A stretch of DNA of 64,000 nt, taken from NCBI RefSeq assembly GCF_004010195.1, contig NC_057751.1, positions 4,239,137-4,303,136 of the forward strand, read 5' to 3'. Under the pieces are notes generated by a model. That model did no database searches. It worked only from the letters and a program-made list of their open reading frames with translations, and was not told the DNA's origin. A program made the translations under genes and the position numbers. Positions 575 to 59,889 of the stretch are shown here, piece after piece (positions within the stretch are counted from its first letter, which is position 1; every line of letters starts with the position of its first letter). This DNA comes from Chiloscyllium plagiosum (lineage: Eukaryota).

Positions 575-3385
575 ATTACAGAAGAGAAGATTTAACAAAA
601 TATAAAGGCAGATAAATCCCTGAGACCTGATCAGTTGTTTCCCAGAACTTTGTGGGAAGAGATAGCTGAGCCTTTTGCTGAGATAATTGTATCATTGACA
701 GCCATGGGTGAGGTGCTGGAAGATGGGAGGATGGCTAATGCTGTGCTTTTATTTAAGAGCGGCTATGAGAAGCAGCCTGGGAGCTATAGACCAGTGAGTC
801 TGATAGGAGGGGTGAGTAAGGTGTTGGAAGGGATTCTGAGAGACAGAATCTGCATGCATTTGGAGAGGCAAGGACTGATAAGCGATAGTCAGCATGGGAA
901 ACTGAGACTCACAGGCTTGATCGAGTTTTTTGAGGATTTGACCAAGAAGATAGATGAGGGCAGAGCGGTTGACGTTGTTGACGTGGACTTCGGCAAGGAC
1001 TTGGGCAAGGTTCTGCGTGGTAGACTGGATAGTAAAGTTAAATCACCTGGCATCCAGGTGATACCAAATTGGCTCAAAGGTAGAAGGCAGAAGTTGATGG
1101 TGGAGGGTTGGTTTCAGACTGGAGGCCTCGAATAGTGTGCCACAAGGATCGGTGCTGTACCTGCCATTGTTTGTCATTTATACCAATGATTTGGATGAGA
1201 ATATAGAAAGCATGGTTAGTAAGTTTATGGATGACACCAAAATTAATGCTGCAGTGGACAGTGAAGAAGATTATCCAACAAGATCTTGGTCAGATGGGTC
1301 CAGGGGCTGAGGTGTGGCAGATGGAGTTTACTTTAGATAAATGCGAGGCTATGTATTTTGGTAAGATCAACCAGAATAGGACTTAAACAGTTCATGGTAG
1401 GACCCTGGAGAATGTTATCAAACAGAGAGACCTCGGAGTGCAGGTACATCATTCCTTGAAAGTGGCATCACAGGAAGTGAAGGTGTTTGGCTCACTTGCC
1501 TTTATTGGTCAGTGCAAGGATGTCATGTAGCGGTGTACAAGACGTTGGCATGACCACCTTTGGAGTACTGTGTACAGTTCTGGTTGCCCTGCTACAGGAA
1601 GGATATTATTAAATTAGCAATTGTATGCAAACATGTTACTGGGGCTTGGAGGGTTTGATTATAAGGAGAGATTGGATCAACTGAGACTTATTGCCCTGGA
1701 GCTTCCAGGGTAATAGATTATTTTATAAAGGTTTATAAAATCATGAGGGGCATGGGTAACATAAATGACTAAAGTCTTTTCCCTCGGGTAGGTGAGTCCA
1801 TAGCTGAAGGGCATAGGTTTAAGGTGAGAAGGTAAAGAATTAAACGGTACCTGAGGGGCAACTTTTTCTCACAGAGGGTGGTACTGTCTGGAATAGAGGA
1901 ATTGCGAGGTGCAGGTACAGTTCCAACATGTAAAAGATGTTTGGACAGATACATGAATAGGAAAGCTAGGGAGGAGATAGCAGAGCTGTTGGCTTTGATA
2001 TTTGAGTCGTTATTATCTACAGGTTTAGTACCTGAGGACTGGAGGATTGCAAATGTTGTGCCATTGTTCAAGAAGGGCAGTAGAGATGAGCTTAAAAATG
2101 TGTTGCTGGAAAAGCGCAGCAGGTCAGGCAGCATCAAAGGAATCGACGTTTCGGGCATAAGCCCTTCTTCAGGAATCATCAGGCAGTAGAGATGACCCAG
2201 GTAATTATAGACCAGTGCGCCTTAATTCTGTTATAGGAAAGGTTTTGGAAAGTATTATAAGAGATAAGATTTATAATCATCTAGCAAGCAACAATTTGAT
2301 TTTAGATAGTCAACCTGGTTTCGTCAAGGGCAGGTCGTGTCTCACAAACCCCATTGAGGTTTTTGAGAAGGTGACCAAGCATTATAGATGAGGGTGGGCC
2401 AGTTATGTGGTATACATGGACTTCAGTAAAGCCTTTGATAAGGTTCCACATGGGAAGATGATTGAGAAAATGCAGAAGCATGGAATTGAGGGTGATTTAG
2501 CAGTTTGGTTTAGAAACTGGCTTTCTGAAAGAAGGTGGTGGTTGATGGAAAATATTCAGCCTGGAGTCCAGTTACTAGTGGTGTGCCACAAGGATCTGTT
2601 TTGGGACCACTGCTGTTTCTCATTTTTATAAATGACTTAGACGTAGGCATAGGTGGATGGATTAGTAAACTTGCAGGTGATACAAAAGTCGGTGGAGTAG
2701 TGGACAGTGTGGAAGAATGTTACAGGTTGCAGGGGGACTTGGATAAACTGCAGAATTGGGCTGAGAGGTGGCAAATGGAGTTCAATGCAGCTAAATGTGA
2801 GGTGATGCACTTTGGGAAGAATAACAGAAAGGCAGAATACTGGGTCAATGGAAAGATTCTTGGTAGTGTGGATGTGCAGAGCGATCTTGGAGTCTATGTG
2901 CACAGATCCCTGAAAGTTGCTACCCAGGTGGACAGTGCTGCTAAGAAGGCATACGGTGTGTTAGGTTTCATTGGTAGAGGGATTGAGTTCCGGAGCCACA
3001 ATATCATGCTGCAATTATATAAAACGCTGGTGCGGCCACACTTGAAATTTTGTGTACAGTTCTGGTTGCCGTATTTCGGGAAGGATGTGGAAGCATTGGA
3101 AAAGGTGCAGAGGTGGTAAGGACGTGGAATGCACGACCTGCTAATGTAGTCAACTCAGTCACATTAGGGAGATTTAAACAATCCTTAGATAAGCACATGG
3201 ATGATTTTGGGATAGTGTAGGGGGACGAGCTGAGAATAGTTCACAGGTCGGCGCAACATTGAGGGCGGAAGGGCCTGTTCTGCGCTGTCTTGTTCCATGT
3301 TCTATGAAAGTGTTAGAGGGAAATGGGGTTAGTTTAGTCTAGGAAGACTGATCAGCATGGATGAGTTAGACCGTGCTTATGACTT
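575..3385 (+). mobile_element. Degenerate CR1 ORF2 with a second CR1 subfamily copy nested at ~1961-3305
   Basis: RT-like peptides ([25 protein letters not shown]) with frameshifts; host 3' UTR resumes at 3306. Confidence 0.88.
2140..2177 (-). ncRNA. Minimal hammerhead-ribozyme motif (family A), intact core
   Basis: Minus strand: CTGAAGA-A-GGGC-ttat-GCCC-GAAA-CG-TC; stem I weak (2 bp). Confidence 0.65.
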
Positions 3386-4004
3386 TCTATCTCCCATTAT
3401 AGCCAGGAGTCTGTACATTTCTGCTATAGTGACACCATCTTGTGGTAAGAATTTGCTAATTAACATCACTGACCTCAACAGAATTTACTTGGACCAATTT
3501 CTCTTTGGAATTGGCTTATTCTCATATCTGTTCATGCTTGTTCAAATTGTAACTTAGTGTGCCAGTGATGGATGCTGTTAACTGTTCCGAGGTGTTACCC
3601 ACAGCTGAATAACTCGGGCCTCAAATCAAGGCCCGCTTCAGAGATCTCAGTACAGAATGTAGTGACGCCAACTCGGTCCTGAGCAAGTCTAATGTTGTTG
3701 GACACATCACCTTGTTAATGACAGCCCTACCCTCGGTGAATATATCTGATGGTGCCGTTTTGAAAGGATGTCCTGGCCAGTGTTCAAGCGATAGCTTGAA
3801 AAGAGAATGATCTGGTCATTTTCACATTGCTGTTTGTAAGAACTTATCACGTGCCACATTTCCAACCTTACAGCAGCTTCCATACAATCCGAAAGACTGC
3901 AGCATGTCCGTCATGCCAGAATCGTGCCTGAAAGCTTCTGCTGTGTGAAGCTGAGGATAGTCATCTGTGAGAATGGTCCTCCTATGATTGTCCACTCTTT
4001 ACCA

Positions 4005-4388
4005 GCATAGAGTTATAGAGATGTACAGCATGGAAACAGACCCTTCAGTCCAACCCAATCCAGTCCCACCTGCCAGCACCCACCTGCCAGCACTTGGCCC
4101 ATATCCCTCCAAACCCCTTCCTATTCATTTACCCATCCAAATGCCTTTTAAATGTTGCAATTGTACCAGCCTGCAACACTTCCTCTGGCAGCTCATTCCA
4201 TACATGTACCACCCTCTGCGTGAAAATGTTGCCCCTTCGGTCCCTTTTATATTTTTCTTCTCTCACTGTAAACCTATGCCCTCTAGTTCTGGCCTCCCCC
4301 ACCCTAGGGAAAAGACTTTGTCTATTTATCCTATCCATGCCCCTCATAATTTTATAAACCTCTGTAAGGTCACCCCTCAGCCTCCTTA
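4005..4388 (-). mobile_element. CR1 3' fragment
   Basis: ORF 4129-4395(-) 'RLRGDL...RTRGH...WNELPE'. Confidence 0.88.
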
Positions 4389-4538
4389 AATGCATGCAGT
4401 TTATGTTTCATCTACTGTTTAACATGGAGAACCAGTCTAGGAGAAGTTGAGTTTGAGTCTGGGGAAAAACAGAAAAAGGATAAAGTTGTAGAGTTTGTGT
4501 TTTCTGCTGTTAATGTCACTCTTTTCTCTGTGGGGCAG

Positions 4539-4631
4539 GCATTGATTAAGTTCAAGAGTTACCTGTACTTTGAAGAGAAGGACTTTGTGGATAAGGCTGA
4601 GAAGAGCCTGAAACCAGCAACAGGCAGTAAG
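4539..4631 (+). CDS. ASH2L: ASH2L internal coding exon (SPRY region): [31 protein letters not shown]
   Basis: cag|GCA...AAG|gtgag, 93 nt, phase 0-0; peptide matches recalled vertebrate ASH2L '[25 protein letters not shown]'. Upstream exons lie outside the window. Confidence 0.97.
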
Positions 4632-5912
4632 GTGAGATGCCCAGTGAGATGTGATACCCCAAGCCGGTCACACATACATGGCTAAAAGGAGACAAATGCG
4701 AAGGTTTTCACCTTGTGCTCATTGCAACCAGTGCACAAGAAACAGAATTGAGAAAAAGGGACATCATGAGGAGAGGGTGCTGATTGGTCAAGACATTGTG
4801 ATTCAGTCTCAGCAGTTAACTGTCAATCTTTGTCCACAGGGCAGACAGATTCTGATTGGTCAAATTGGGAAAAGGACATTGCGTCCGTACCTAAAGGGAT
4901 CCTGAAGGAAGCTGATCTCTGCTGCCCTATGGCGACAGCTTGACCAATTGTAATCTGCCTGCTGACTCTGAGAATGAAGATTGACAGTTAACTGTCCTGA
5001 TGAAGGGCTGATGCTCGAACTGTTGATTCTTCTGCTTCTTGGATACTGCCTGACCGGCTGTGCTTTTCCAGCACTACACTCTTCAACTCTGGTCTCCAGC
5101 ATCTGCAGTGCTCACTTTCTCCCAGTTAACTGTCCTTGCTGAATCTCCATGTTCCAACCAGTCAGTACCCTCTTCTCATGCTGTATAAATTAGAGGCTGT
5201 TTCTTGGATTCTCATTCTAACAAGCTGAATTCTTGATTACTTGTACCAGTGTCAGTGTTCTGTGCTAACAAGCACTAATTTATATACCAGCCACTGTTGT
5301 AAACCATTCCAGCAAGTTCAGTAACAAAGTATGCAGTTGTTTAACAACATTGAGATTGGAGATTTTTGTTTAAGCAAATGCTAAAGGAGATTGATGAGGT
5401 GGACATGGAACAGATGTTCCACCTTGTGAGACAGCCTTGAAGAAGAGGTCATAGAGTGACAGGGGTGAGGAGAAATGACTTCTCCCATACGGTTGTGAAC
5501 CTGTGGAGCTCTCTGTCCCAGAGCGCAGTGGAGGCAAAATCACTCAACAGATTGAAGGACGAAATAGATGTGTTTCTGATGAAAAGTGGGATACAGGGCA
5601 GTGGGGAGCAGGCAGGACAATGGAGTTGGGACCAGGATAAATTCAGCCAGGATCATGTTATATGGTGGAGTGGGCTCGACTGGCTGAAATGTCTGCTCCC
5701 ACTCCTAATTCCTACATTCCTCTGAGATCAGGCTTGCTCCTCAGATGCTGCCTGAACTGTTGTGCTTTTCCAGCACCACTATACCCCTCCTGACTTATTC
5801 ATTGCAGGGACTGTAAATGGTTGTTTGGTCTGGTTCTTACCCAGTTGGTCTGGAACTAACTGGTCCCTTGACAAAATATTGAAAATGTCTTTTTTTTCCC
5901 CTCCTGATTTAG

Positions 5913-6011
5913 ATGATTTTTTTTAAGAATGGAGATAATGAGGGAACTGCCTATGAAGATGTGTATGCTGGGGTGTACCATCCTGCAATTTCTTTGTACA
6001 AGAACTGCACT
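5913..6011 (+). CDS. ASH2L: ASH2L coding exon: [33 protein letters not shown]
   Basis: Polypyrimidine tract + tag|ATG...ACT|gtaagt, 99 nt, phase 0-0; matches 'IIFYKNG...GVYFPAISLYKSCT'. Confidence 0.96.
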
Positions 6012-6725: not shown

Positions 6726-6785
6726 GTGTCGATCAATTTCGGGCCAAACTTCAAGTATCCTCCGAAAGACATTCCGTTCAAACCG
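6726..6785 (+). CDS. ASH2L: ASH2L coding exon: VSINFGPNFKYPPKDIPFKP
   Basis: T-tract cag|GTG...CCG|gtatgc, 60 nt; matches 'VSINFGPxFKYPPKD'. Confidence 0.96.
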
Positions 6786-8244: not shown

Positions 8245-8250
8245 AATAAA
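8245..8250 (+). terminator. ASH2L: Probable ASH2L polyadenylation signal AATAAA
   Basis: AATAAA ~600 nt after the stop, preceded by TGTA motifs and followed by GT-rich sequence. Confidence 0.7.
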
Positions 8251-15144: not shown

Positions 15145-15682
15145 CTTGAACAATTTCCAGACCAATAAATAACCAAGTTAATAGTGTTGTGCATTTTTCA
15201 ATTTTAAATACAAGGATTAGAATCTATATATTACATATTTTTATATGTACATACAGTGCAAAGCCGAGACCATACCACACTCATCTGAGGAAGTGACTCT
15301 GAGCAAGTAACCAATCAACTTTGCAGCTACTGGTCATTTGTGGTTCGGAGTTTTTTGGGTCACAAGTTCAACATTGGAATATTGCTTAAACTACGATGGG
15401 AGAGGTAAGTTGAAGAGATAAAGGAGTAGGCTTCTATGCTGGTAGAGAGTGTTTAGGCTGAATGGCCTGTTTCCATGTAGTGAAATCTGGTTCCACTTTG
15501 GTGCACTTCTGCATTGGAGTCATCCTGGTTGTGGAATGGAGCCAGGGAGTTTGTGGTTGACATCTGCCTCAGATGGTACGCGCTGCAGAGGTCAGAGGAG
15601 GCGTCCCTGGGCTTGCATCTTCACAGGATCGAGAACATACCTGCGCCAGTCTGTTTAAACTCTCACAATGAAGAATATCAAC

Positions 15683-15717
15683 CACCTGATGAAGGGGCAG
15701 TGCTCCGAAAGCTAGTG
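15683..15717 (+). ncRNA. Minimal hammerhead-ribozyme motif (family B), intact core
   Basis: cac-CTGATGA-A-GGGGC-agt-GCTCC-GAAA-GC-TA-gtg; stem I cac/gtg. Confidence 0.7.
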
Positions 15718-16514
15718 CTTCCAAATAAACCCGTTGGACTATAACCTGGTGTTGTGTGACTTTTTAACTTCATTTAAAAAAAAACAGCATGTGTACAAGG
15801 CACTGGGAAAGGAAGGAGTGTGTAAAACTACAGAGACAGCTTGGAGCTGAATAAACGGTGGGTGGTCTGTGAGTGAGACCACAGTGCTAGCTTTACCCCT
15901 GTCCCTGTGTCACACTGTCACTTTGTGGCATCAGTTTTGTCTTTGTTGGGGGATGTGAGAAGGACATCCCCAGACCCTTGTTCCTGTGTTGGTCTTGGTC
16001 CAGCATTGTGGGGAAACACCATGACAGAGGGGCGTGAGGGGAATGGAGCTGAACAATGGAACAATTGAGATGTTGAGCACCACCCCACCCCACCCCGACC
16101 CCCAGCCCTGGGCCAAGCTCTCGTCAGCCAGACACTTAAGCAGTGGGTCCAGCCAAGGTCTGTATGTATCACTGAAATACAGTGATGGGGCCACCAGTGA
16201 TTTAGATTCAAGACACCTCTGTATGAAGAGATGGCTCAGGATTTGTAGTGGAGCCCTCTCTGGGATGTGACATGAGCCTCCCCCCCACCCTTTTCACCAA
16301 TGGAGAAACGGCCAAAGCTTTCTCCCAGTTTTATTATTTGTGCAGTAAGTCTCTGGCTGTTGGGGGGGTCTTGTTTCCAAATGGGTCCTAAGTTCACAAC
16401 AAATTGGAGTCCAGAGAATGGGAATTCTTACCTGGGACCCCATCCCCCCCGGGGACCCAGTGTGGTTCATGGGAAAGATGTTTGCAGGAGTCTTGAGCAA
16501 AGTGGGAGAGTTGT

Positions 16515-20023: not shown

Positions 20024-20398
20024 CTGCAAGCACAATAAGGTGAAGTCAACAAACTCTCCCTGTATTTCGAAAAGAAACCCTCTTTTTTTTCGATTTGGAT
20101 TTTTTTCTGTCAGGTGTACTGGAGTACAGGGGGTACAGAGACAAGTCTTCCAAGCTGCCTTCTCCAGCATCATGTTAGGATACAAAAGACAGGGTTAAAA
20201 ACAGAAGTAGAAATAAAAGGAACAGCCAGAAGATAAGGAAACGTCCAGATCACTCTGCCCGCCTCTGCTCCTTGAGATAAACAAAGCCACAAAGTCCACC
20301 CCTCAGTCTGTGAACAATGATGTGGAGGAACTGGTGTTGGATTGGGGTGGACAAAGTTAAAAAAATCACACAACACCAGGTTATAGTCCAACAGGTTT

Positions 20399-20597
20399 GT
20401 CTGCGTGGGTTTCCTCCCACAATCCAAAGATATGCAGGCCAGGTGAATTGGCCATGGTAAATTGCCCAGAGTGTTAGGTGCATTAGTCAGGGGTAAATAC
20501 AGGGAATGAGCCTGGGTGGGTTACTGTTCGGAGGGTCAGTGTAGACTGTTGGGCCAAAGGGTCTGTTTCCATACTGTAGGGAATCTAATCTAATCTA
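20399..20597 (+). mobile_element. 5'-truncated V-SINE inserted into a Penelope-like palindrome
   Basis: V-domain remnant with (aatct)n tail; the host element resumes on both sides. Confidence 0.8.
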
Positions 20598-21031
20598 ATT
20601 TGGAAGCACTAGCTTTTGGAGCGCCACTCCTTCATTAGGTAGCTGTGGAGCAGGACCATAAAACACAAAATTCATAGCAAATTTATAGCAAAACCTTTTG
20701 CTATAAATTCTGTGTCTTCTATCCTGCTCCACAACCACTTGATGAAGGGGCAGCGCTCCGAAAGCTAGTGCTTCCAAATGAACCTGTTGGACTATAACCT
20801 GGTGTTGTGTGATTTTTAAATCAGTGAACAATGACAAATGAGATATGTGGCAGCAGTTTGGGGAGGGGCGGGAACTGATTGTCCAAGGGTTATCACTAGC
20901 CACACTTGAGAAGGAGGCTTTGTGTGTGCACTTCCCATTGACACTGCATCATCTCGAATATATGAACCCTGTCACCCATTTGCACTTGATGTCACCTAAG
21001 GCTGCCAATAATCATTTACATTATTCCTTCA

Positions 21032-21201
21032 GGATGTAGGTTTGTTCACCGAGCTGGAAGATTCATTTTCAGACGTTTCGCCACCAGACTAGGTAACATA
21101 ATCAGTGAGCCTCCGGAAGCTTCACCGCTGAAGATGTTACCTAGTCTGGTGACGAAATGTCTGAAAATGAACCTTCCAGCTCCGCGATCAAACTTACATC
21201 C
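21032..21201. mobile_element. Penelope-like inverted-repeat element with two hammerhead motifs (family C)
   Basis: ~76-bp inverted arms; + copy CTGAAGA-T-GTTACC-tagtct-GGTGAC-GAAA-TG-TC at 21128-21161. Confidence 0.65.
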
Positions 21202-24200
21202 AGAACCTCAACCTGAGCTAATTGCTTCTTCAAAACAGTGAAACATCCCAGAATAATTCTCAATCAATCCAGCTACATCACAGAGCCACCATCACCAATG
21301 CTACATTTGTTTGAACTGTTTGGTTTTGAGAGGAGTGTCTAAAGGTGGAAAGAGCGATGGAGGTGGGGAGAAGATAAGTCCAAAGGTTCATGCTTGTATT
21401 GGCTCTGAGTATCGTTGTGTCTGGACCGATGTCTGAGTCAGCTCAAGGATGTATTGAAGACAGGGCACGGGTTGTGGCACAGGACGGTGGAGTGGACACA
21501 GCTCTTTTTGAGCTGTTGGATGACCATACACAGACACTGAGCTCACAGGGAAGTGCGTTCACTCCGTGGCGAGGGTGACCACCCTCTCTGAAGGAGTGCA
21601 GAGATCTGCAAGAGCCACAGGACTGGAGGTGCTGAAGGATATTCTCAGAGTGTGTGCTCAGCCAGGGCAGAGTGAATGGGGACGCAGACAGTGGATATGA
21701 CAGCCACTCTGCAGAAACTGCTTCCGAAGCTGAAATGCACAAGACATTGGGTAACTTCCTGAATTGAGAACCAATGGTTAATCTGGTAACACCAACTCAC
21801 CATGAATAAAAGCAACAAGCAGAGGAACATTGCAGACAGTGAGTCATAGCACAATGCAATTATTAACTGGTAGCACACTTTGCCGTTCAGTTAGGACTCA
21901 GTGAGGAACTGGGCCACAAACATGGAGTCATTTCTTCTGAAGGTCTCTTGGAGGACTATTGCCAAAATTCCTGACACAATCTGTTCCATGTCTACCACTG
22001 GGAAACAGGACAGCAGGTGTCGATGTATAATTTGACCTTTCAAGCCATGAAAAGTTCTCCAAAAATGAGTGCCAATGTACACACCAAATCTGAAAGGAAA
22101 CCATGAATGTGGACAGTGACCATTTTCAAATGCCGTCACCATCATCTGACACCAACAGCCCACCCGAGTTTGCCGAAAATATCTGCGCATCTCCGTAAGA
22201 CAGCCCAGATCACCTTACTTCAGTATCTTGGATGCAATTATAAACCACCTGTCAGGTACAACACAACACTCACCTTCAACAGTCGCAGCATGGATTATAA
22301 GCCATGATGTGGAGGCGCCAGTGTTGGACTGGGGTGGACAAGGTCAGAAGGCACAAGACACCAGATTATAGTCCAAGCTCATTTGAAATCACAAGCTTTC
22401 AGAGCCCTGCTCCTTTGTGAGGTGAATTATAAGAGCAGGGAGATAATTTTGGAGGTGTCCAGGACTTGGGGTTAGGTCACAGCTGGAGGACTATGTGCAG
22501 TTCTGGTCCCCACACTACAGGAAGGATGGGATTGGACTGGAGAAGGTACCCAGTGGATTCACCAGAATGTTGCTTGGGATGGACCATTTGAGCGATGAAG
22601 CAAGTCTGGATAAGCTTGGATTGCAGCAGAGAAGGCTGAGCAGGGACCTAATAGGGTAAGTAACACTGTGTGTGGCATGGACAGGCTGAAAAGAAAACAG
22701 CTGTTCTCCTCAGTGGGAAGTGAATGATTAGGAAAAATGAAATCCAGGAGGTTTAGAGGCAAGTTCAGGAAAGGCTTTTCCTTTCAGGTGGTGCTGGGGA
22801 TCTGGAATGCATTGCCTGGGAGGGTAGTTGAGGCAGGTGTTAGAGATGAAAATGTGTTGCTGGAAAAGCACAGCAGGTCAGGCAGCATCCAAGGAACAGG
22901 AGAATCAACATTTTGGGCATGAGCCCTTCTTCAGGTGTTAGAGATGCCCATATTTGACAGACACAAGATGTCTGCCAGCTAAACTGTCCCTCTGCTCCTG
23001 CACAAAATGGCTGACAAGTGGTTATACAGAACCAAAAGCCTGCTCCCGCACTGAAGGGCTCTTTTGAGAAGCTGTTATTCTGAGGTAAAAGGAAGCCTTG
23101 CACAAACAACTGCAAGAAGATTTGTTGGAGACAGTTTGATAAGAGATGTCCAAGGACAGACAGTTTGAAGATTTGGAACAAACATTGAAGGGGAAAGTAA
23201 ACTCCTGCAAAAACCAAACACAGATGACCTCACGGTGTTTCTGCTCATTAAAATCTGGAGGATCAAACAAGTAAACAGGTTCTTGACATGATGATAGTGA
23301 TTGATCGTAGTCTCATTAATGAAAGGATGTTATCCCATGACATGAGCAGAGTTCGTTCGGACAAGGGCTGTTAATTGCCCAGAAGACAATCAGCCTAACT
23401 TGTCCTGAAGCTTTGGAAAGAGCAGATCATGGCACTTTGCAGCAATTAGTTTTTTTTTAAATTATTCACAATGTTAAGAAATAGGTTCTTATTAAAGGTT
23501 CTTCAGATAATCTCAGAGATAGATTTCAACGTAATTGTAAATGCACATATATAACAAAACACAAAGATCACTGAAAGCATGATAGGAAAAGATTCAAACA
23601 GAGATGTGAAAGTTAACTAATCTCGGGAAACTTCTCTTTATCACTAAAGTAATGCCTGGAAGAAACAAATTGCTCATAACTCATGAGCTAAAGAGTGCTA
23701 ACAGGAGGGGTCGATATAAACCTTTACATATAACCAACTTTATAATAGAAAAGATATTACATATCTTTTCGCAATCAGTAAGAACCGACTGTCTATTGTA
23801 TGTTTTACAATTCGGACAGTGGGAAAACATAAGAGGAGGGACAGAATTGGATAGAGATAGCTAGTAAATATAGTGAACAACAGGCTTTAAAGGGTCCTCA
23901 GCGATAAGCAAGTCTGGCACATGTCTGAAGGAGTACAGCCAGAAATTTGGAATGCAAATTAGAAGGATGCAAGGAAAGGCCTGGTGATTACAATGTCTGT
24001 TAAACATCAGGAGATCATGGGAACCTAGGGCTGTCCATAGGCATGTCCCTCATTGATTAGGTGTTTCCCTGGATTAGAATAAGGGGAAGAGCACAGTTGT
24101 ATGTGATTATAGTAACATAAAATGTGTAAAAGCATCACATCCCACTGTGAAATCCAGAGTGTATTGACCTCTCTTCCAAACTGAGCTAAAGATTAAGGGG

Positions 24201-26665: not shown

Positions 26666-27828
26666 CATCAAAAACCCTCTCAACTTTGCAAAGGCCCCTC
26701 CTCACTGAACTCCGGTGCCTGAGCACAATTCTCACTTCACTTCAGCCTTGGTTGAAGGTGCCCTCAGTGTGGTGGATATGAATGACCTGACAGTCCATAC
26801 CTCGGCGTTAAGGGTGGGTCAGCACTGGGGAGAATAGCAAAGTGGCATCCCTTGCATGTCAGCATTGATGGGGCATGGCACGAATCAAGACAAAGGTGCC
26901 AGAGTGAAAAACAACAATGAAACAACTTCTTTTTGATGAAAATAAACTGCCCTCTGAGGAGTTGATTCCTTTCAGTTTCCAGTTTATATGAAGATGGACT
27001 TTAATCTTAAGAATTACATTATTTCTTTATTTTTTCTTATTATGTGAAGATAATGCTTAACATTTTAACTTGGTTGTTTTTTATCATTTTGTCCCGAAGT
27101 TTGTACCTAAGCCTGTCCTTATTGTCAGTACACCTGACAATAAAAGATCCAAACCTTAATCCTCCAAGCCCCAATCCTGATTCTGCTCCAACTACAACGC
27201 AGTATTACGACAATCAGTGGTGATGTGAAGGTGGCACCTATCTCCGCTGTGAGCTTCTCACTTGGTCTTGCCTTCTGCAACTCGGTGGGGGGGGGGGGGA
27301 GCTGACTGTGAAACTCCGACAGGAGCAGTCGATGCCTCCAAGACATTGACAAACAGTGAAGCTGACTCAAGGGACAGACCACGACAGCCCCTACACTGTG
27401 CTCAGCCATGGGACCGTGGGCAGGTGGTTTGTTTGTTTTTGTGGCGTCGAGTTAAGGGATCAATGTCAGCCTGGAGACGCTGAGGACTCCCAGCTCTTCT
27501 GACAAATGGCAACCACGCGATGTGTGGGATCCACCCAACCAGTGCAGGGAGTGTGCTGGAAGCCTGGACCTCAGGCTGTGCTGCACTCCCTCAGTCATGC
27601 ACAGGTGTGGCAGCCTGGAGCGATGTGCTCAAAGCCCTGACCCAGATCATTTCCTGAACTTGTATTAAAGTGCTCTGATACTTCAATTTCACAACAAACG
27701 ATCAAGTGGATTTAATGATCACTACCACCATTGCAACCCTGGAGAATAATGACCACTGGAGGTTGGTTTTTGGCCTTGGCACAGTTTGAAAAACCCAGTT
27801 GTGAAGGTTCCCTTGTGAAACACCTTAC

Positions 27829-27987
27829 CTTCACCTGTTTAACGTTTGGGTTCCACTCTCCCATCTGTTCCACCTTGTCAAACAGCTCACTGTACAGCAG
27901 GTCTGACGATTTGTCCATCACAACCTCAAGCTTGAAGACCTTGCCAATATCTGGAAGCGTTTTGCTCTGGACTTTATCACCGTTGGC
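27829..27987 (-). CDS. STAR: StAR exon 4: [53 protein letters not shown]
   Basis: aacag|GCC...AAG|gtaagg, 159 nt; motif 'MGEWNPNVK'. Confidence 0.98.
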
Positions 27988-29342
27988 CTGTTGAGGATTC
28001 ATAGCGCTCGGTTCAGCTCTCAGTCAATGAAACAGGCAAAGGAAGAGGCTGCACTGTCCTAGCCCCCCCCCCCCCATGGAGACTACAACCCAATCTTGGG
28101 ACAGCCCTGCCCCTTCAATGCTCTGTACCTGCCCTGCTTCCATATCCAGGGTGCCTTTCCCTCATCGGGAATGTCTCTCAGTCTGGGGAAAATGACTCAG
28201 ATCTGGTCATCTCAGCTTTTGGAGCCTTTCTGAGTGAGTGATCCAGATCATGGCCAGCTTTTGTATGAGAAAGACGCCCTGTGGCTTAACAACACCACGC
28301 TGGCTCCGCACCTGGTCAGACTCAGGCAGCGAGATGGGTCTCGGGATGTGGGGAGTATCAGATCAGCCATGAGTGGCTCAAGGGGCCGAATGGCCTCCTC
28401 CTGCTCCTATCTCCGATGATCTCACGTATCTACAATCCTGCTCTGAGATTCGGGAGAGGGGGCAGTCATGAGACAGTTGTGTGGCAGGTTTGTTTTGCGT
28501 CATGACTTTTATCCTCTTTGGAAACTGTGCAGATGTGTGTGTGTGTGTATTTGTTGGACCCACAGCCAGTCTGAGTCAGGCTCCTGAGCCACAGGGTTTC
28601 CCTTAGTGATTGTGAAGCCAGTGCAACTCTGTCCCGAATTCTGGCACATTAGCCAAAACCCAGGAGCACTCCTAGTCTGAGCCAGAGGTTCTGCTCCTTC
28701 AGCACCTCGGTTTATCAACACTCTCTCGGCATCCCATGGATCTCCTCTCAGCCTGAGCATAGTCCCTGTCACAGCACTTGGGAGTGAAGGAATGGCCCAA
28801 GCTCTGCCTCCTGGTTATTGCAAATGGACATGGACCCCAGGGTGAGGCCCTTCATTCAGGGGAAGGATTGAATGAGTCAGTTTTCCCCAAGAGAGGAGAA
28901 GGCCTGGGGAGACGTGATGGATATCTCCAAATCCTGAAGGGCCTGGATGGAGAGAGGACCCGTTCCCACTGGGGAAGCAGAGGGCACTGTTTTCGAGGGT
29001 GAACCCTAGAAGCACAGCATTTCACACAGCGAATGCCTCTGTCCTGTCTGGGAGGGTGGCCAAGGTAGGGTCAACAGAAAGACTCACTAGCACATTGGAT
29101 GTCAATGGAAACGACAGGCAGGATTACTAGGAAAAGGCAGGAGCTTGGCACTGTATTGGAATGCAGAGAGGGCCGATGGGCTGAATGGCCTCCTTCTGTC
29201 ATTCTACAAAGGACCTTGTTTTGTGCTGACTCCCCATACTTTAGCAATTTTACTGAGCTACATGAACGAGCTGATCACCAGGACTGTGTCCTTCTGTTAA
29301 AGGAAAGCTTTCGCTGAACAGAAGTAAGAGACCAGAACTCAC

Positions 29343-44015: not shown

Positions 44016-44647
44016 GTATGTCAGACCTGTTTCAGATCCTGGGCAATGAGGAGGCTGCTGGAGAAGATGTGAGACGCAGTGAGATGGAAGATGTGATGGG
44101 GTCGAACTCCAGCAAGCTCCAGGCGAAGCAGGACAGATGCAGAGTGAGTGTGCTTACCCTGGAATACTAGATCAGAGTGTATCCTCTCTGGAGCTCACCC
44201 ATTGTCTGTCCTTGTGATGTTGCTGTGGAAACAATTCTCAGAGTGCTCTGTGACCCCCCAGGATTGGGAAGTAAAAGGGACACCATTTTTCCCTCCCTGA
44301 ACAGTTTCTCCATTCTGATTTTCCTTGTTGATGGGCAGCTGAGTTGACTCGGAATCATACAATCCAGAAGAAGCCCTTTGGCCCATCTAGTGTGTCCTGC
44401 CATCTACACTAGTCCCACTTTCCCACACTGAGCCCGTACCCTTGGATGATATGACACCCCAAGAGCTGATCCAAGTATTTGTTTAAAGGTTGTGAGTTTC
44501 CTGCCTCACCAGCCTCCCCGGCGGTGCACTCCAGATCCTGACAACTCTCCTTTCCTTAACTCTCCTCTTAGCCTTTCCCTTTAACAGGGCAGCCCCTTGG
44601 TCTGATAAAGAAGGGCAAGTCTTCCACCATTCAGGCCCTCAAGTCTA

Positions 44648-44777
44648 TTCCTGAAGAAGGGTTTATGCCCGAAATGTCGATTCTCCTGTTCCCTGGATGC
44701 TGCCTGACCTGCTGCGCTTTTCCAGCAACACATTTTCAGCTCTGATCTCCAGCATCTGCAGACCTCACTTTCTCCTC
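44648..44777 (+). mobile_element. Short family-A element with hammerhead motif at 44651-44678
   Basis: CTGAAGA-A-GGGT-ttat-GCCC-GAAA-TG-TC followed by the family body (gatgctgcctgacctgctgcgcttttccagc). Confidence 0.65.
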
Positions 44778-45179
44778 ATGTCTACCCCACCAACCACTCC
44801 AAGATCATGGCTGCTCTGATGGTGGTCTCACACACACACACACACACAGGATTTAAGCTATTGTCAGGAGCAACAAATCTATGCAAGCTTTTATTAGTAA
44901 CATAATGGATTTTTAATACAACTCAACAAAATGGTTTTGGGATTAATACTGTGCAAAAGTGGTTGAAGGCTGCATTCCTGCTTTGCTGAGCTCGCTGAAT
45001 TAAAAGATAAAGCAGACAATGAAGTCTTCATAAAATGGATCATAAGACATTAACTGACCACTCTGACTAACCTTGAACTGCCGGCATGAAATTGGAAACC
45101 TTGCTTTATACAGACCGCATTCTGTTCATTCTTTCGACTGATCTCGAAGCCAAGAGGTTCCGTCTGGGATCCACATCTT

Positions 45180-51974: not shown

Positions 51975-53629
51975 AATGCTGTGGGGGTGGAGCCTGTATG
52001 TAAGGCTGAGACAGAGAGATTCTCGATCAGTCAGGGAATCAAGAGTCATGGGGAAAGGGCAAGGAAGTGGGCATGAGGAGTGTGGGATCAGCCGTGATTG
52101 TATTAAAAAGTGCAGGAAACTAGAAGGGCCAATTGGCTGAGACTGCTCCCATTTATCATGGTCTTCTGACATCAGGTAACTGACTCCAGGTAGACCTACT
52201 TTGGAAAATTTTATATGGTGGACTTTGAAAGACTTGAAGTCATTGCATTAAGACTCGTCACATATAACTTTAACCCCTCTGACCCAATATAGCTCAACAT
52301 ATCCCAAGGCCATGCCAAGTATTTATCGTTGACATTGAGAAATAGAATGGCTCACGTAGAGGGTAACAAGGTGGACTGCAAAATACTCTGCAGATGCTGG
52401 AAATCTGACATCACAACACAAAATAGTGGAGTCACAAAGCAGTTGGGGTACAGAGAGAAACAGCTCATTCTCTTCCAAGTGATTGTCAACACTGACATTA
52501 AAAAAGAAGGCACCATGGACTTCAAGTTGAGATTTTTGATCTTTTAAATTTCAAGTGCCAAACTTTGATGATTAGACTTGATGCAGAGTATGAACGCATG
52601 CTCATTTTTAAGAGACACAGAGAAAACTGAGAGAAATGTAGTGGCTGCTCCTTTGTATGGTCTTTTGTTTATTATTTATTAATGGGATCTGGGTGTCGCT
52701 GGCTGGGCCCAGCATTTATTGCCCGTCCCTAGTTGCCCCTTACGAAGGTGGGGGTGAGCTGCCTTTTTGAACCGCTGCAGCCCATGTGCTGTGAGTTGAC
52801 CCACAATGCCCTTCCGGCGGGGGGGGGGCGGTGCGGAATTCCAGGATTTTAACCCAGTGACAGTGAAGGAACGGCGATATATTTCCAAGTCAGGATGGTG
52901 AGGGACTTGCATTGGGTGGTGTTTCCATGTACCTGCTGCCCCTGCCTCTGCAGATGGTAGACATTTAGATAGAAGTGTCTAAGGAGCCTGGCTGCATTCC
53001 TGACCTGATAGGTGTAGAATCTCTGACACGTGGATCATATTTTGTTGTCGCTCAGACTTATCTTTCTCATCCATTGATGGCCATGCTTTCAGCTCTGGGA
53101 TTTCTCCATAACCTCCTCATTTTCTGACTCTTTGCAGCTTTCCTTCAAATCACAAAAAGCTGCCTCTTCAATGAATCTTTCTTCATCTGCCCTAACATGG
53201 GTTACTGTTGAATTTGGGTTGCGTTAGGTCTTTGGGACACCAATGAAGATGTCCCAGTGTCGATATTGAGTGGGAGCCTTTGAGACAAAGTTGGATCAAC
53301 CAACAAGAGGGAGGGAACTGCAAGGTCTGCAGCTGAAAGCAAGTAAGAAAGGGATTTGCAGACCTTTGACAAGCCTTCAGCAGGATCCTTGAATCTTTTT
53401 AAGCCAGAGTTTGACAACAAAGGGGCGGCGAATGTTTGTGTTGGTGTCCATGGATGTTTTAGAGATAAATCTGTTCAGGAGATGTGAGCGGTGCTGGCTG
53501 GCGAGGCCAGTATTTTACTGCCCATCTGTCATTGCCCGGAGAGAATGCCATCAGAGCCATCAGGATTGAATGGACGGGCTAGCAGACTGGGAGGAGAGGG
53601 GCAGAGTAGCCTACTTGTTTTTCTCATGG

Positions 53630-54800
53630 GCGTCCAGTGGAGGACGAGAGGTTGGCGCTGCACTGGCTCTCCCAGGCGGCCGGCGGCGTTGTAGCGGGAG
53701 GACCGCAGTCATTGGTTTGGCGCTGCAGTTGCGCTCCTATGCGGCGGTGGCGCTGCGACGGGAGGACCGGTTGGGTTGAAGTTCGGCGGGGTGTGGAGTT
53801 GCAGTGGGACTCCTATGCGGCTGGCGGCGCTGCGGCGGAAGACTTCAATCGTGGCGTTGGCGCTGCAGTTGCGTTCCTCGATCGGGAGGCGTGGCGTGGC
53901 GTGGCAACGGGGCGGCGCTGCGGCGGGAGGTCGGGGTGGGTGGAGCGGTCCGCTCTTGCTGCCACGTCACAGTTGGAGGTGAGCGAGGACTGGTGTTGTC
54001 CGGGTGACCGAGCCGGTGAGTGCAGGCGGAGGGTGGCGGGGGAACCGGACGGAGGGGGGACGCCGCCGCTGCTGCTGCTGCTCACGGGATGTCGGACGGA
54101 GAAGTCGCTGATCGTAACCACGCCCTATATCCATTGTGGCCAATGAAAAACAGAGAGTAAAAGTCCTTTTGGATTGTAAAAGGAAAGGTTGGGGGGGGGG
54201 GGGGAATGAAACGGTCCCCCATCACCTGCCCCTCACAACTGGGTCTGAGGATGGGGTTGGGGTAGAGGAAGGGGTGGGATGCCTCACTATTCCCTCCCTC
54301 CCTGCTCAATTGACCCACACTGGGCACAGCGATGTTTTCCAGCGCGTTTTTCTGGCTTAATCTGCTCTCCCTGCATCCCACAGCTGGGTGGGCTAGCACA
54401 GACTCGATGGGACGAATGGCCTCCCTCCTGCCAGTGCCCCGCAAGGGGTCTTTCCTTTTTTTAAAATTCCTGCCTGGCCCCCTTGCCCACTGTGACCTCT
54501 GCGGCACCCGTGGGCACATGGCCATCGGGAGGAGGCCACTCGGCCCCGTTGAACCAGCCCTGTCACTCCGTAAGGTTTTGCCCTGCCGCTCGCCACTAAT
54601 CCGACGTGGGCCCCTGGCGCCCGCTGGGTCTCAGAGGCTGGGGTGGGCGCCTGCAGCGTTTTGCCGTTGCTCACGGACCTTTGCCTTGTTTGTTTCTGAT
54701 CGCCCTGCAGGATGAAGTGAAGGTGCCCTTCCGAACCTGAGGCGAGAGCGCAGCCAGTCACACAACGGCCTGGTGTGCGGTCGACCCCCCCCCCCCCCAC
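53630..54800 (+). promoter_or_regulatory. CpG island, probable PLPP5 promoter with non-coding first exon (donors at 53978|gtgagc and 54015|gtgagt)
   Basis: By far the most CpG-dense segment in the window, 5 kb upstream of a coding exon that has its own splice acceptor. Confidence 0.65.
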
Positions 54801-55080
54801 CGGTCCACTTTGATGGTACGTACAAGGCCGCCTCTGTGCCCGCCTGATGTTGCAATGTTGATAGGAGAGGGCACGATTGATGAGAAGGTGCCGCTGTATG
54901 CATATAGGGTGGAGGGGTCTTGGGTTTTGGGGTCGCTGAGACTGGCATCAGAGGGCTGTTTCCACTGGCAGGAGGATTGGCATCTGGAGCAGCCAAAACA
55001 GAAAAAAAAACTGCTAAAAGAACTAATGGGTGCGTGACAGATGTTGTGACGAGTTGGAAGGCAACGCTTTGATAGACAAT

Positions 55081-55367
55081 GATTAGATTAGATTAGATTA
55101 CTTACAGTGTGGAAACAGGCCCTTCGGCCCAACAAGTCCACACCGCCCCGCCGAAGCGCAACCCACCCATACCCCTACATTTACCCCTTACCTAACACTA
55201 CGGGCAATTTAGCACGGCCAATTCACCTGACCTGCACATCTTTGGACTGTGGGAGGAAACCGGAGCACCCGGAGGAAACCCACGCAGATACGGGGAGAAC
55301 GTGCAAACTCCACACAGTCAGTCACCTGAGGTGGGAATTGAACCCGGGTCTCTGGTGCTGTGAGGCA
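55081..55367 (-). mobile_element. V-SINE (young, HE1-like)
   Basis: Very similar to 12647-12960; (gatta)n tail. Confidence 0.88.
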
Positions 55368-57844
55368 CAATAGAAGCAACTTCAACATGAAATTTCCAAA
55401 GGGCTACCTGAGGGATGATTGGGTGAGGGAGGAACCCCAGCAGGGAGGAATTGGTCAAGATTGTGTGAAAGTGTGCAGCCTTTTCCCATGATCCTTTATC
55501 TGTGGGACATTGAAACAGGGAGCAACAAGAGGCCACTTGGCCCTTTACGTCTACCCCACCATTTGATAAGATCATCGCTGATCACATTTTAGCATCACCT
55601 GCACGACCCTAATAATCTTTTATCCCCTTGGTAATTAAAACAGTGTTTTAGAAATGCTGAAAGATTCTGCATCCATTGCCTTTTGAGGAAAGGAATTGCA
55701 AACAATCCCAACCCTTGGAAAGCATAAAAGCTGTTCTCTCTGAAATGGGTGTGCCCTGATTTTTAAACCATGACTCCTGGTTCTCGATTCTCTGACAAGG
55801 GGAGATCTCTCCATGTCCACCACAGGATCTTGTCTGTTTCAGTGAGGTCACCTCTGTTTGTTCTGAACTCCAGATGATACAGCCCTCGCCTGTCCAGCCT
55901 TGCCTCAGAAAGCAATCTGCTTATTCCAGGCATGAGCTAGAAAGCCTTCACTGACCTGCTTCCAATGCATTAGCATGATTGTGTACGTACAGTGACCTGT
56001 AGTGGACACAGTACTCCAGACATAGTCTCACCTGTGCCCTGTTGGACTGAAGCCTGATCTTCTGACTGCTGCATAAAGCAGAACATTCCGTCAGCTTCCC
56101 TGATGACTGCTTGTACCTGCACACGAACCTTCTTGGGTTCAGAACTGTAAAGATAGTGTGTGCATACCTGGCAAAGCTGCAGGCTCAAAGCTGAACCTGT
56201 TTTTGATTTGTTGTGCAGAAGCAGTTCCAGAATCCTGACAGACGAGAGTCTGAGATACGTGCTCGGTTCATGTGGTGATATTCTCCTGTCATCATAACAC
56301 CCCTCACTCAAGAAACAAAACCGCTAGAAGGTTCTTCAGTGCAGGCCATAAAGATCAACTTGTTCGGATCTGTTGGATAATATCCAGCCTTGGTGAGAAC
56401 CACATCTCAAACACTGAACACTTACAGTCCCCTTATTTAAGGATTGATGTCAGTACTTGGGATGTGGTTCAGAGGAAGTTTACCCCACCAATACCAGGAG
56501 CAAGTGGGTTGTCTTTCACTGCGAGGGTGGACAAGTTGGGCTTGCTTTTACTCGAGGTCAGAAGCATGAGGGATGACCTGTTAACGTGATGCTGAATGGT
56601 TTTCACAAAGTGGATTTGGAATGGATGTTCCTGCTTCTGGGCAGAAGGACTGGGCACTCTTCAAAAAATTAGGAATCACCTTTTCAGGGCAGACGAGGAG
56701 AATTTTGCTCTCAACAGGCTGTGTGTGTTTGCAACTGTGCCTCAGACATTGGTGGGGACAGTGTCATTGATATTATTTGAGGCACAGGAGAATAGGTTCT
56801 TGTGACGCAGCTGAATTGAACAGAATCAGAGGGTGGACAGGAATGTGTAAGTTGGACCATAACCCCTAAATAACCAATGATTTCATTGAATAATGGAGCA
56901 AGCTGGAGGGGCTGAATGGCCTATTTTCACTCCTCATTGATATATATCTGGCACACTGGGACGTGAAAATTTTCCCTTGGATGGGGGATTTGTAGTCCAG
57001 AGAGTATGTTTTTCGGGTGAGAGGAGAGAGATTTAAAAAAGATATGGGGGTGGTTTGTGGAATGAACTGCCTGAGGGAGTGGTGGATGTGGGTACAGTGA
57101 CAGCATTTCAAAGATATTTGGATAAGCACATGAATAGGAAAGGTTTGGAGGGAGATGGGCCAGGAGCAGGCAGGTGGGACAAGTTGAGTTTGGGATTATG
57201 GTCAGCATGGACTGGTTGAACCAACGGTCCTTTTCCGTGCTGTATGATGCTCTGGGCTTCACAAGATTTCTTAGCTGTTCAGAGAGAAGAATGAAAAGTT
57301 AGGTGTGAATCCAGATTCTGGTTTGGGAGGATTGTGATGAAGCTGATACTAGGACAGTGTTTCCCCTTGTGGGGGAATTGAGACCAAGGGCACATGGTTA
57401 CAAATTAGGAGTCTCCCTTGAAAATGGCACAGCAGAGGAGTTTCTGCTCCGACATGGTCGTTAGTATTTGGGATTGTCTTCCAATGTGGTTTGCCCGCTT
57501 CCTTACCAGAGTTGGTTCATGAATGTGACTGCAAAATCAGCTCAGGTGTTTGAAAGATCTTTCTCTGAGCTTGTATTTGTTCATACAGTTTGGGGCAATG
57601 CAGGAGTTGATGGGCAGAAAAGCTCCTGTAGGACTGGAAATGACTGCGAACTGTGGCTTGGTTCAGGGGAATAGGATATCAAAGGGACATCCAGCACAGA
57701 GAGGCCCTTCGACCCATCGAGTCTGCATTAATTCCATTTTCCAGCCCTTCCAGATACTTCCAATGCGCGTCCAAGGAGTTGTTGAACATTGTGAGGTTTC
57801 CCACCTCATCGACCCTCCCTGGCCGTGCATTTCACTCTGTGACT

Positions 57845-58460
57845 TGTTATGGACCAGGCCAGAGCCCCTCTCAACATTTCAAGAAAGTAGCCCAGACTCG
57901 AACCTTGCAAATTGTTTTAAGCAGGTGTAGTGTGGATATTCCAGGAGGGATGTAGCTGGCCCAACCACTTAAGTTTAAACAGGATAGAATTTATTTACAA
58001 GAGTACCGAATGAAACACAAACCACAGAAAACAGAATACTGAGTAACTTAACCTCTCCGAAAATCCAACAGACAATCCCCATTTAATGATGCTGTTCCAA
58101 ATACTTGCAATAATGCCCATAAGCAAAAGGTAAAACCAAACCCGGGGTCTTCCAGGAGAGAGGTCAGAGAGAGAGTACCAGCCTGGACCTACTCCTTTGG
58201 GTCCAGCAGCTTTTTCCACAATACTGCTAAAACCCAAACCAAACCAGAGAGAAGCTGAGCTGGGAGAGCTGGCTGCTCCCCTTTCATTGGACAAGGGTTT
58301 GTTAAACTTGAAAGCCTCTACTTGAGGCAGTATCTGTTAGTTATTATCACATTGGCCCCAAAAACCCTTCAACCCCAGACTTTTCGGAGTCGTTTGCGAC
58401 CTCTCTTTAAAAAAAAAACCAAGGGCTACGTAATCTCATTAAAGAATCAGCGTTGTCACA
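57845..58460. mobile_element. Solo-LTR-like element
   Basis: tgttatggacc...cgttgtcaca termini; homologous to 25809-26665; no clear TSD. Confidence 0.5.
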
Positions 58461-58489
58461 CAGTACCTTCCAGGGGGACGTGTTGTTTC

Positions 58490-59350
58490 TCAAATACCTC
58501 CTGCCTTTCACCTTCAAATTGTTCTCCTTGTTATTATCAACTCAGGGGAATAACTGCTTTCTCTCCATCCTGTCCGTGCCCCTTGTCGTCTTCCACACCT
58601 CTGTCAGATCCCTTCTCCGTTTTCTTCACTCTAACCCAAGCTTATCCAGCGCCTCTCTGCTGCTGAAACGCTCTATCCCAGACAACATCCTGGTGAATCC
58701 ACTGTGCACCCCCTCCAGTCCAATCCCATCCACCCTCTCGTGTGGGGACCAGAACCGCCACACAGTCCTCCAGCTGGGGCCGAACCCAAGTCCTGTGCAG
58801 TTCCAACATCACCTCCCTGCTCCGATAATCAATGCCATGATTGACAAAGGCAAGTGTCCCGTATGCCGCCTTAACTCCTTTGTGAACGTGTCCTGCTGCC
58901 TTTGGGAGTTTGTGGGCGAGCACCCCAAGATCCCATTGCTCCTCTCAGCTTCCCAGCGTCCTGCCATTCATTGAGTACTCCCCTGCCTTATTGCTTCTTC
59001 CAATGTGCATCGCCTCACAGTTGGCAGGTTTAAATTCCATCTGTCGCTGATCAGCCCATCTGATCAACCCGTGTGTATCCTTCTGGAACCCAAGGCCTTC
59101 CTCCTCATTATCAACAGCTTGGCCAATCTTTGTGTCTTCTGCGTACTTAGTGTATAATACTCCTTCTTTATTGTTCATACATAATCAGGGGCAGAGGGGA
59201 GGCCCCAGCACTGATCCTTGTGGACCGCCACTGGACACCGGCCTCCATTCCAAACACCACCCTCTGTCTCCTCGCACTGAGCCCATATTGGATCCACCTT
59301 GCCGAGTGACCCGGGATCCCATGTGCTTTTGTCTTGTCTTTCCAAACAGG
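58490..59350 (-). mobile_element. Old CR1 ORF2 remnant abutting the PLPP5 exon
   Basis: Minus-strand peptides KAHGI.G...WIQ..LS.RRQRVV, KYAEDTKIG, KAAYGTLAFV. Confidence 0.8.
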
Positions 59351-59390
59351 TCGGCAGTGAGACGCCAGGCACCTGAACGCTCGGGTCACC

Positions 59391-59461
59391 ATGCGGAAGA
59401 ATATTGTAGTTAACTTAATCTGTGAGGTGGCGCTAAGATTATTCCTGTTTGCAGTATTCCT
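59391..59461 (+). CDS. PLPP5: PLPP5 first coding exon: MRKNIVVNLICEVALRLFLFAVF(L); exon begins at 59350
   Basis: Kozak-like gtcaccATG, donor CT|gtaagt, acceptor aacag| at 59349; resembles PLPP4/5 'EVGVRLALFAAF'. Confidence 0.88.
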
Positions 59462-59693
59462 GTAAGTCTTTGTTTCCTGTCACTATTCTGTCTATGGTGG
59501 TGTTACCTATCTCGCTGCTGTAAAGTTTGACCATGGTTACAAACTGCCAGTACCCATCACTCCTGACAAGTGTCCTGCTGTTGCTGAAGTCGATGTTATT
59601 TAAAACAAACCCCACTGCTGCTCATGTTGGCAGTGTGTTCAGGGGCTGCCATGTAAGGTACAGGAGGAGAATTAGGCCCACACTTGGCCCATT

Positions 59694-59889
59694 AAGTTAC
59701 AAATCACACAACATCAGGTTATTGTCCAACAGGTTTATTTGGGAGTACAAGCTTTCAGAGCGCTGCTCCTTCGTCAGGTCACTAGTGGAGCAGGATCACA
59801 GCTACCTGACGAAGGAGCAGCCCTCTGAAAGCTTGTACTCCCAAACAACCCTGTTGGATGATAACCTGGTGTTGTGTGAGTTGTAACTT
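59694..59889. mobile_element. Penelope-like inverted-repeat element with two intact hammerhead cores (family B) in a PLPP5 intron
   Basis: ~85-bp inverted arms; + copy tac-CTGACGA-A-GGAG...CTCT-GAAA-GC-TT-gta at 59803-59837. Confidence 0.68.

Follow-up and report, generated by a model that had tools for sequence, protein, structure and literature searches.

Hammerhead insertions in the window

The 64,000-nucleotide (nt) stretch of the Chiloscyllium plagiosum genome analysed here (contig NC_057751.1, positions 4,239,137 to 4,303,136; hereafter the window) carries a dozen dispersed minimal hammerhead ribozyme motifs, which are very probably short insertion stubs of autonomous Penelope-like element (PLE) families. 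Coordinates are those of the window. Within a copy, position +1 is C3 of the hammerhead, and the predicted cut gives a 5' end at +29 (family A) or +30 (family B). The original prediction, drawn from the letters alone, placed twelve motifs in three families (A, B and C); a homology search found all of them at the same positions and on the same strands, except that in the copy listed at 22420 the C3-equivalent is base 22421. To say that CUGANGA, stem II and GAAA-NN-UH are kept in all twelve goes too far, since only six keep them. A descriptor scan of the window found an intact core and a stem II of at least 4 base pairs (bp) at 2172 (- strand), 15686 (+), 21128 (+), 44651 (+), 59777 (-) and 59806 (+), whereas 100 dinucleotide-shuffled versions of the window gave 0.1 motifs on average and 1 at most. 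The other six sites have changes in the core: GAAC at 4997, UUGAUGA at 20739, CUGAUUA at 21105, AAAA at 22934, two changes at 20638 and a decayed first box at 22421. An Rfam scan of the window returned no hammerhead family at E ≤ 5; we attribute this to the limit of the model for a motif without helix III and do not take it as evidence against hammerheads.

The twelve motifs belong to nine insertions, six singles and three head-to-head pairs, and target-site duplications (TSDs) of 8–15 nt surround four of the singles and two of the pairs. The head-to-head arrangement of six motifs, the TSDs on several copies and a thirteenth site were absent from the original prediction. This last site, also found by homology search, is a family A stub without a hammerhead core at 5734..5783 (+ strand, limits approximate).

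The family A stub at 2090..2176 (- strand, C3 at 2172, core intact) has a short tail and a 14-nt TSD (2076–2089 and 2182–2195), with five additional nt, the last a G, before the stub start. The long-tail stub at 4997..5122 (+ strand) has a damaged core (GAAC) and a 14-nt TSD (4985–4998 and 5123–5136) that overlaps the stub start through microhomology. The short-tail stub at 22849..22934 (- strand) carries G12A and lies within a 15-nt TSD (22834–22848 and 22932–22946), which includes 3 nt of microhomology. The long-tail stub at 44647..44780 (+ strand, C3 at 44651, core intact) starts at -4; its degenerate 9-nt TSD was spotted by eye only, the script finding none of at least 8 nt. In family B, no TSD was found around the short-tail stub at 15680..15771 (+ strand, C3 at 15686, core intact, 3' limit approximate), and the long-tail stub at 22302..22425 (- strand), in which the first core box has decayed, has an 8-nt TSD (22294–22301 and 22426–22433).

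The family B pair at 20321..20823 joins a long-tail arm on the - strand (C3 at 20638, decayed core) to a short-tail arm on the + strand (C3 at 20739, C3U) within an 11-nt TSD (20310–20320 and 20824–20834). A homology match at 20439 is the distal part of the 20638 copy, separated from it by an insert resembling a short interspersed element (SINE). This SINE-like repeat, which has many copies in the window, sits at about 20398–20597 inside the long-tail arm and is therefore younger than that PLE insertion. The family C pair at 21028..21236 (limits approximate, no TSD found) has a short-tail arm on the - strand (C3 at 21105, G8U) and a longer arm on the + strand (C3 at 21128, intact core) with an ATG at +7 to +9 of the core region. 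Both cores are intact in the family B pair at 59693..59909 (C3 at 59777 on the - strand and 59806 on the + strand), which is flanked by a 10-nt TSD (59683–59692 and 59910–59919).

Copy number, ribozyme structure and decay

The genome was sampled in 100 evenly spaced 10-kb stretches from contigs C1–C36 (963,744 non-N bases; the assembly is 3.56 Gb). This 1-Mb sample contains 80 motifs with an intact core and stem II (1–3 in shuffles) and 337 family copies, namely 171 of A, 61 of B, 22 of C and, in two further families D and E, 73 and 10. Extrapolated to the whole genome, these counts would give about 3e5 intact cores and more than 1e6 copies, the smaller and unplaced contigs lying outside the sample. 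Families D (L248, L258, L251, L276 and L253) and E (L199, L291 and L215) have not been seen in the window; each has its own stem II and a 4-bp stem I, at 73 and 10 copies per Mb, respectively.

The ribozyme features that had been described for the window recur in the sample. Each of the five families has its own stem II with pairing kept. The extra base after A9 is present in 79 of the 80 sample motifs, G10.1 in 78 of the 80 and NN-U-H in 72 of the 80. The ACGU or AGCU palindrome is found in 53 of the 72 motifs with NN-U-H, and many of the remainder resemble CpG decay. Covariation in stem I stands for the -3/1.3 pair of families B (C-G 101, U-A 8, U-G 12, C-A 7; p = 3e-4) and C (C-G 37, U-A 51, off-diagonal 5; p = 3e-20), with the qualification that subfamily members are not independent and that each covariation may be one change in a master lineage. 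In family A, stem I reads AUUC/GAUU, and 184 of 241 copies have a U-U mismatch in it.

Many copies have decayed: among those chosen by homology, the core is intact in just 68 of 124 in family A and 12 of 37 in family B. Mismatch to the column majority is 9.6% in the core and 5.1% downstream in family A, a difference that is partly junction noise, and 7.7% and 6.7% in family B. Because the core diverges no less than the sequence downstream and is frequently lost, we conclude that selection acted on master elements, not on stubs. The dispersed copies would decay neutrally and are probably inert. This bears on the idea that they are active dimer-cleaving ribozymes (retrozyme monomers) relevant to host RNA. 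The retention of core and stems in five families with different stem II would agree with such a role, as would the ability of the palindromes to base-pair (-1.7 and -2.5 kcal/mol). We nevertheless consider it very improbable given the neutral-like decay, the lack of tandem arrays (only 24 of 335 sample copies have a same-strand neighbour within 1 kb) and the activity of minimal PLE hammerheads in vitro, which is low or protein-dependent according to passages in the published work (PMC4209133, PMC11167929).

Action as dimers, as had been envisaged for the window copies, is unlikely. There is no tandem array over any of the twelve sites and no same-strand tandem core pair within the window, and in folding calculations the head-to-head pairs form long sense/antisense hairpins (-118 and -146 kcal/mol) that would hide the ribozyme. 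In monomer folding, the hammerhead is not the minimum-energy structure and only stem II forms in some copies, a calculation that is uninformative for a motif lacking helix III.

Linkage to Penelope-like elements

Family A copies elsewhere in the genome are 94–99% identical to the copy at 44651, and some of them run upstream into a GIY-YIG gene (locus L010, PF01541). According to Pfam, locus L133 contains a reverse transcriptase (RT) domain (RVT_1), then the endonuclease and then the A hammerhead, and at locus L164 RVT_1 lies upstream of a B hammerhead. The genome was searched with three endonuclease-region peptides, which gave 110,458, 26,420 and 60,300 first-look candidates (these are not copy numbers), and a same-strand hammerhead was sought within 1.5 kb downstream. 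The A hammerhead follows the A-type GIY-YIG in 22 of 30 loci (at 332–358 nt in 13; three of the 22 are partial matches), the B hammerhead follows the B-type in 22 of 30 (it is the nearest in 21, mostly at 670–1040 nt), and the C hammerhead follows the C-type in 28 of 30 (mostly at 235–295 nt); each set of 30 contains the locus of the query itself, and N gaps or contig ends affect many of the misses.

In family A, the hammerhead and tail also precede the start of the open reading frame (ORF), which lies 162 nt after C3. As the motif stands both at the ORF start and downstream of GIY-YIG, it lies in a true pseudo-long terminal repeat (pLTR). By pattern search, the A hammerhead was located 146 nt before the matched ORF-start motif in 8 of 33 matches. 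The 'long ORFs' returned by the genome search were rejected as inflated by N gaps. Judged from the sequence, every motif family serves as terminal repeat to an RT/GIY-YIG family of its own. High-copy Penelope-type minimal type-I hammerheads tied to PLE termini, which the original prediction had proposed, are thus borne out by the GIY-YIG/RT linkage and the 1-Mb sample.

Families A and B have a Cys-x4-Cys-x2-Cys linker before the endonuclease. A zinc-finger-like cysteine linker between RT and a GIY-YIG at the C terminus is given as a mark of Neptune/Nematis in the relevant passage of PMC8557442, and on this linker we label A and B as putatively Neptune-type. The linker is absent from family C (L178, L167 and L194), in which the GIY-YIG domain scores 19.2 in Pfam, under the cut-off of 22.6. 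Family C, a candidate for the Penelope/Poseidon clade, has an ATG at +7 in 101 of 108 copies, which opens a frame through the tail; this frame remains open for 25 codons in 75 of the 101, and the other two frames are closed in 101 of the 108. The 'extra U after A9' of this family falls in or beside the in-frame ATG. In family C, the predicted start codon and the ribozyme core therefore probably overlap, an arrangement shared with the anole Poseidon element PAc, the ORF of which starts at stem II (PMC11167929, in part).

Ends of the stubs

The stubs are 85–135 nt long. Their 3' ends are bimodal, at about +90 and +135 (about +80 and +113 in family C), the two favoured positions being separated by about 40 nt. 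This matches the PLE tail of 30–40 nt and the pair of sites at which RT starts in anole Poseidon, as outlined in parts of PMC8557442 and PMC11167929. Independent stubs join nearly the same position of CR1-like long interspersed element (LINE) copies (L147, L209 and L040 for family B; L170, L088, L183 and L187 for family C), a hint of target preference through homology to the tail end.

The 5' ends were mapped in 330 of the 337 sample copies (two had too few partners and five were located at a region edge). They lie at -20 to +5 in 154 copies, at +6 to +22 in 38, at +23 to +35 in 21 and at -100 to -21 in 45. Stubs beginning at the cut site (+29/+30) were sought, and no peak was seen (21 of 330 at +23 to +35, compared with 38 of 330 at +6 to +22). 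Since the ends are mostly away from the cut site, they argue against cleavage as the maker of the template. The peak is sharp in family A, with 67 of 188 copies stopping 3–4 nt upstream of C3 (the set includes the stub-query loci). Stubs of B and C seldom extend much past about -13 and -24, respectively. Long copies have TATAAA at -40/-38 in B and at -48/-47 in C, which places the 5' ends in these families roughly 30 nt downstream of the TATA boxes. In family A, a T-rich element is located at about -36 and the sequence TCATTCC surrounds A(-4); we take the latter to be initiator-like. Of the 32 A copies ending at -4, 15 have a G just ahead of ATTC, compared with 0 of 75 long copies, and among the TSD-defined singles with extra letters, four of five have G (two false TSDs from tandem copies were set aside). 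An extra G at the 5' junction of a stub is presumably what copying of the RNA cap would give. From these positions we infer that transcription would start upstream of the core, at a distance of 4 to about 20 nt, with the hammerhead first in the RNA, and we lean towards run-off at this RNA start as the origin of the stubs.

Ordinary 5' truncation after priming at the 3' end could also produce such ends, if RNA structure, exonuclease trimming or microhomology joining created a hot spot at the hammerhead edge and the RNA began elsewhere. Heavy 5' truncation is standard among PLEs (PMC8557442, in part), microhomology is frequent at the junctions and the edge of helix I is where the 5' ends fall. 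A stall would, however, be expected 3' of the structure, at about +33, where few ends fall, and an RNA start is favoured by the G excess and, in two families, by the spacing of the TATA box; we regard truncation as somewhat unlikely.

The TATA boxes also bear on whether the stubs form families of their own. The original prediction held the copies to be separate non-autonomous derivatives mobilised in trans, and one could imagine SINE-like families with an internal promoter that borrow the PLE protein. The sharp common 5' end of family A would suit such families, as would family D, where only 1 of 72 copies extends more than 20 nt upstream and which has the strongest claim of any family to being truly non-autonomous, or else very old; passages of PMC2377424 place an internal promoter in Drosophila virilis Penelope, so that transcription of stubs is possible in principle. 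However, stubs occur together with copies reaching more than 100 nt upstream in all four named A subfamilies and in the unclassified rest (a test made for family A, with coarse diagnostic words). Copy lengths grade from stub to ORF-bearing, B and C likewise pass into long copies, and the stubs of B and C lack the TATA boxes, which are located upstream of where a stub starts. Separate non-autonomous derivatives are not supported by these data, and SINE-like families are an improbable source of the stubs.

Head-to-head pairs

About half of all sample copies are arranged head to head (90 of 170 in family A and 32 of 61 in family B). TSD-like repeats of at least 8 nt flank 46 of 81 pairs and 35 of 163 singles, as compared with 2–3% of shuffled pairings. 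The value for the pairs against 2% of shuffled pairings means that a pair is one event. Pairs consist of one long-tail and one short-tail arm in 68 of 78 classifiable cases (p = 5e-12; four pairs with broken arms were left out). The arm reaching further 5' is the long-tail one in 20 pairs and the short-tail one in 25, with 8 ties. The two arms are more alike than other copies; in family A, 40 of 66 arms have their partner among the top 10%.

Two-ended priming at two tail sites fits these data, and we give it an even chance. The pairs might instead arise by fold-back self-priming of a single complementary DNA (cDNA), the shorter tail being set by endonuclease resolution. Fold-back has been proposed for rotifer PLEs (PMC3846280) and the tail has been ascribed to endonuclease resolution (PMC8557442), in passages of those papers, and the likeness of the arms fits a single template. 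Under fold-back, the long-tail arm, being the first, should extend further 5', which is not what the counts of 20 and 25 show, and the short arm stops where short single stubs stop. We therefore view fold-back as a possible but rather doubtful route.

Proposed insertion cycle

The run-off and two-ended priming proposals can be joined in one scheme. The RNA would begin just before the core, with the hammerhead foremost and the TATA element upstream. The PLE protein would bind the 'tail', a copy of which stands close to each end of the pLTR-ORF-pLTR transcript; priming at the 3' tail copy would give long copies and priming at the 5' tail copy the 85–135-nt stubs. RT would run off the start of uncut RNA, the template not being cleaved by the ribozyme. 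Where both cut DNA ends prime, one per tail site, a head-to-head pair flanked by a TSD would result. Taken as a whole, including tail priming and run-off, it is probable that the motifs are the pLTR minimal hammerheads of three endonuclease-positive PLE families, and that the copies in the window are short insertion stubs derived from these. A more tentative reading, to which we give somewhat less than an even chance, is that the genome's stubs, about a million in number, record the PLE cycle in vivo: RNA starting from the first helix I base some 30 nt behind TATA would be copied uncut to the cap, and a dimeric protein would prime both ends to yield long-plus-short palindromes. The hammerhead would then act at the RNA 5' end, as a cap-removing switch or a binding fold, and not as a cutter of the template.

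Several observations weigh against this scheme. The 5' ends are broad in family B (29 of 60 at 0–4 nt and 19 of 60 at 7–13 nt upstream) and in family C, where only 26 copies were scored and seven of these come from a subfamily that lacks long reference copies. A canonical TATA box is absent from family A, and its excess of G is weak (G versus A, p = 0.053) and suggestive only. TSD-like repeats are found on only 35 of the 163 singles. The 5' ends coincide with the 5' edge of helix I, and trimming to the structure could explain them; junction mapping within palindromes is ambiguous. By pattern, 25 of the 33 ORF-start matches have no hammerhead (some are truncated and some may be pattern misses), and RT in cis was seen for A and B loci only, not for C. 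No uninterrupted full-length element was found in the 14 stretches examined, the assembly having N gaps inside long copies. Finally, one raw single-cell poly(A) run gave 3,007 reads that match a natural A copy, and they show no pile-up of starts or ends. These reads come from both strands, 93% of them continue into unlike sequence and their depth follows the stub limits; a second such run gave zero reads on the A copy. The reads most likely represent stubs inside host transcripts, in which case they are uninformative on the start site or cleavage.

Relation to known elements

Minimal hammerheads in metazoan PLE pLTRs were described by Cervera and De la Peña in 2014 (PMC4209133). As far as the passages of that paper allow comparison, the motifs share the core boxes, the extra base between 9 and 10.1, G10.1, the palindromic 15.2–16.2 and the short helix I, and they likewise occur mostly as single dispersed copies tied to truncated PLEs, with opposite-strand doubles. 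The copy number here is far above its 4,000 (coelacanth) and 9,000 (Xenopus), counts that are not directly comparable because our descriptor has no stem I requirement. The clustering of 5' ends at the ribozyme edge seen here is not described in those passages. For PLE insertions in general, parts of Arkhipova et al. 2013 (PMC3846280) and Craig et al. 2021 (PMC8557442) report inverted pLTRs, a TSD, an optional 30–40-bp tail at one end and TATA/initiator elements in the pLTR. Head-to-head copies within one TSD, a tail on one arm and TATA-like pLTR elements are found here as well; the differences are that most units in the shark are only 85–135-nt arms and that the long-plus-short rule has been counted (68 of 78).

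For Anolis Poseidon PAc, sections of Frangieh et al. 2024 (PMC11167929) report that both strands are cut and extended, that there are two adjacent internal priming sites and that mainly uncut RNA is used. As here, two adjacent internal RT start sites define the tail, and the hammerhead of PAc is dispensable for insertion. Families A and B differ from PAc in the Neptune-type cysteine linker, and the family A ORF starts 162 nt after C3; our comparison is confined to sequence. The non-LTR retrozymes of Li, Clavereau and Pollet 2026 (bioRxiv 10.64898/2026.07.22.740005) are, in the portion of the preprint that bears on this, also type I hammerheads from PLE pLTRs in vertebrates. They form head-to-tail tandem arrays, whereas the copies here are single or head to head and flanked by TSDs. 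Internally deleted mini-elements exist in the shark (L227 at 1811–2425, L281, L226, L296, L312, L316, L319 and L321), with the layout hammerhead, tail, ORF start, a jump to the pLTR and a second hammerhead, and with same-strand cores 210–381 nt apart; they are possible retrozyme precursors.

A literature search, mostly outside subscription papers and excluding supplementary tables (which may list cartilaginous-fish motifs), found nothing on shark PLE hammerheads, hammerhead-edge stub 5' ends or PLE twin priming. The motif class itself has been known since 2014; added here are the endonuclease linkage of three families, the spacing of the TATA boxes, a cap-G signal, albeit a weak one, and the long-plus-short rule. 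The PLE hammerhead has been proposed as the cutter of tandem precursors, yet it is dispensable in vitro. The genome supplies hundreds of thousands of natural insertion ends and yields testable predictions on the start site and on two-ended priming.

Host sequence around the stubs

Repeats make up about 42% of the window, and much of this we take to be fragments of CR1-like LINEs. A START-domain exon (PF01852, E = 5e-6) is located at 27715–28023 on the - strand, detected in a scan of 80 of the 259 non-repeat ORFs; it resembles, we presume, StAR. The window probably holds a START-domain gene on the - strand, and several of the stubs may be intronic in it. The stretch at about 53000–55000 is rich in GC and CpG (CpG observed/expected 0.74 at 53001–54000) and is a possible promoter island.

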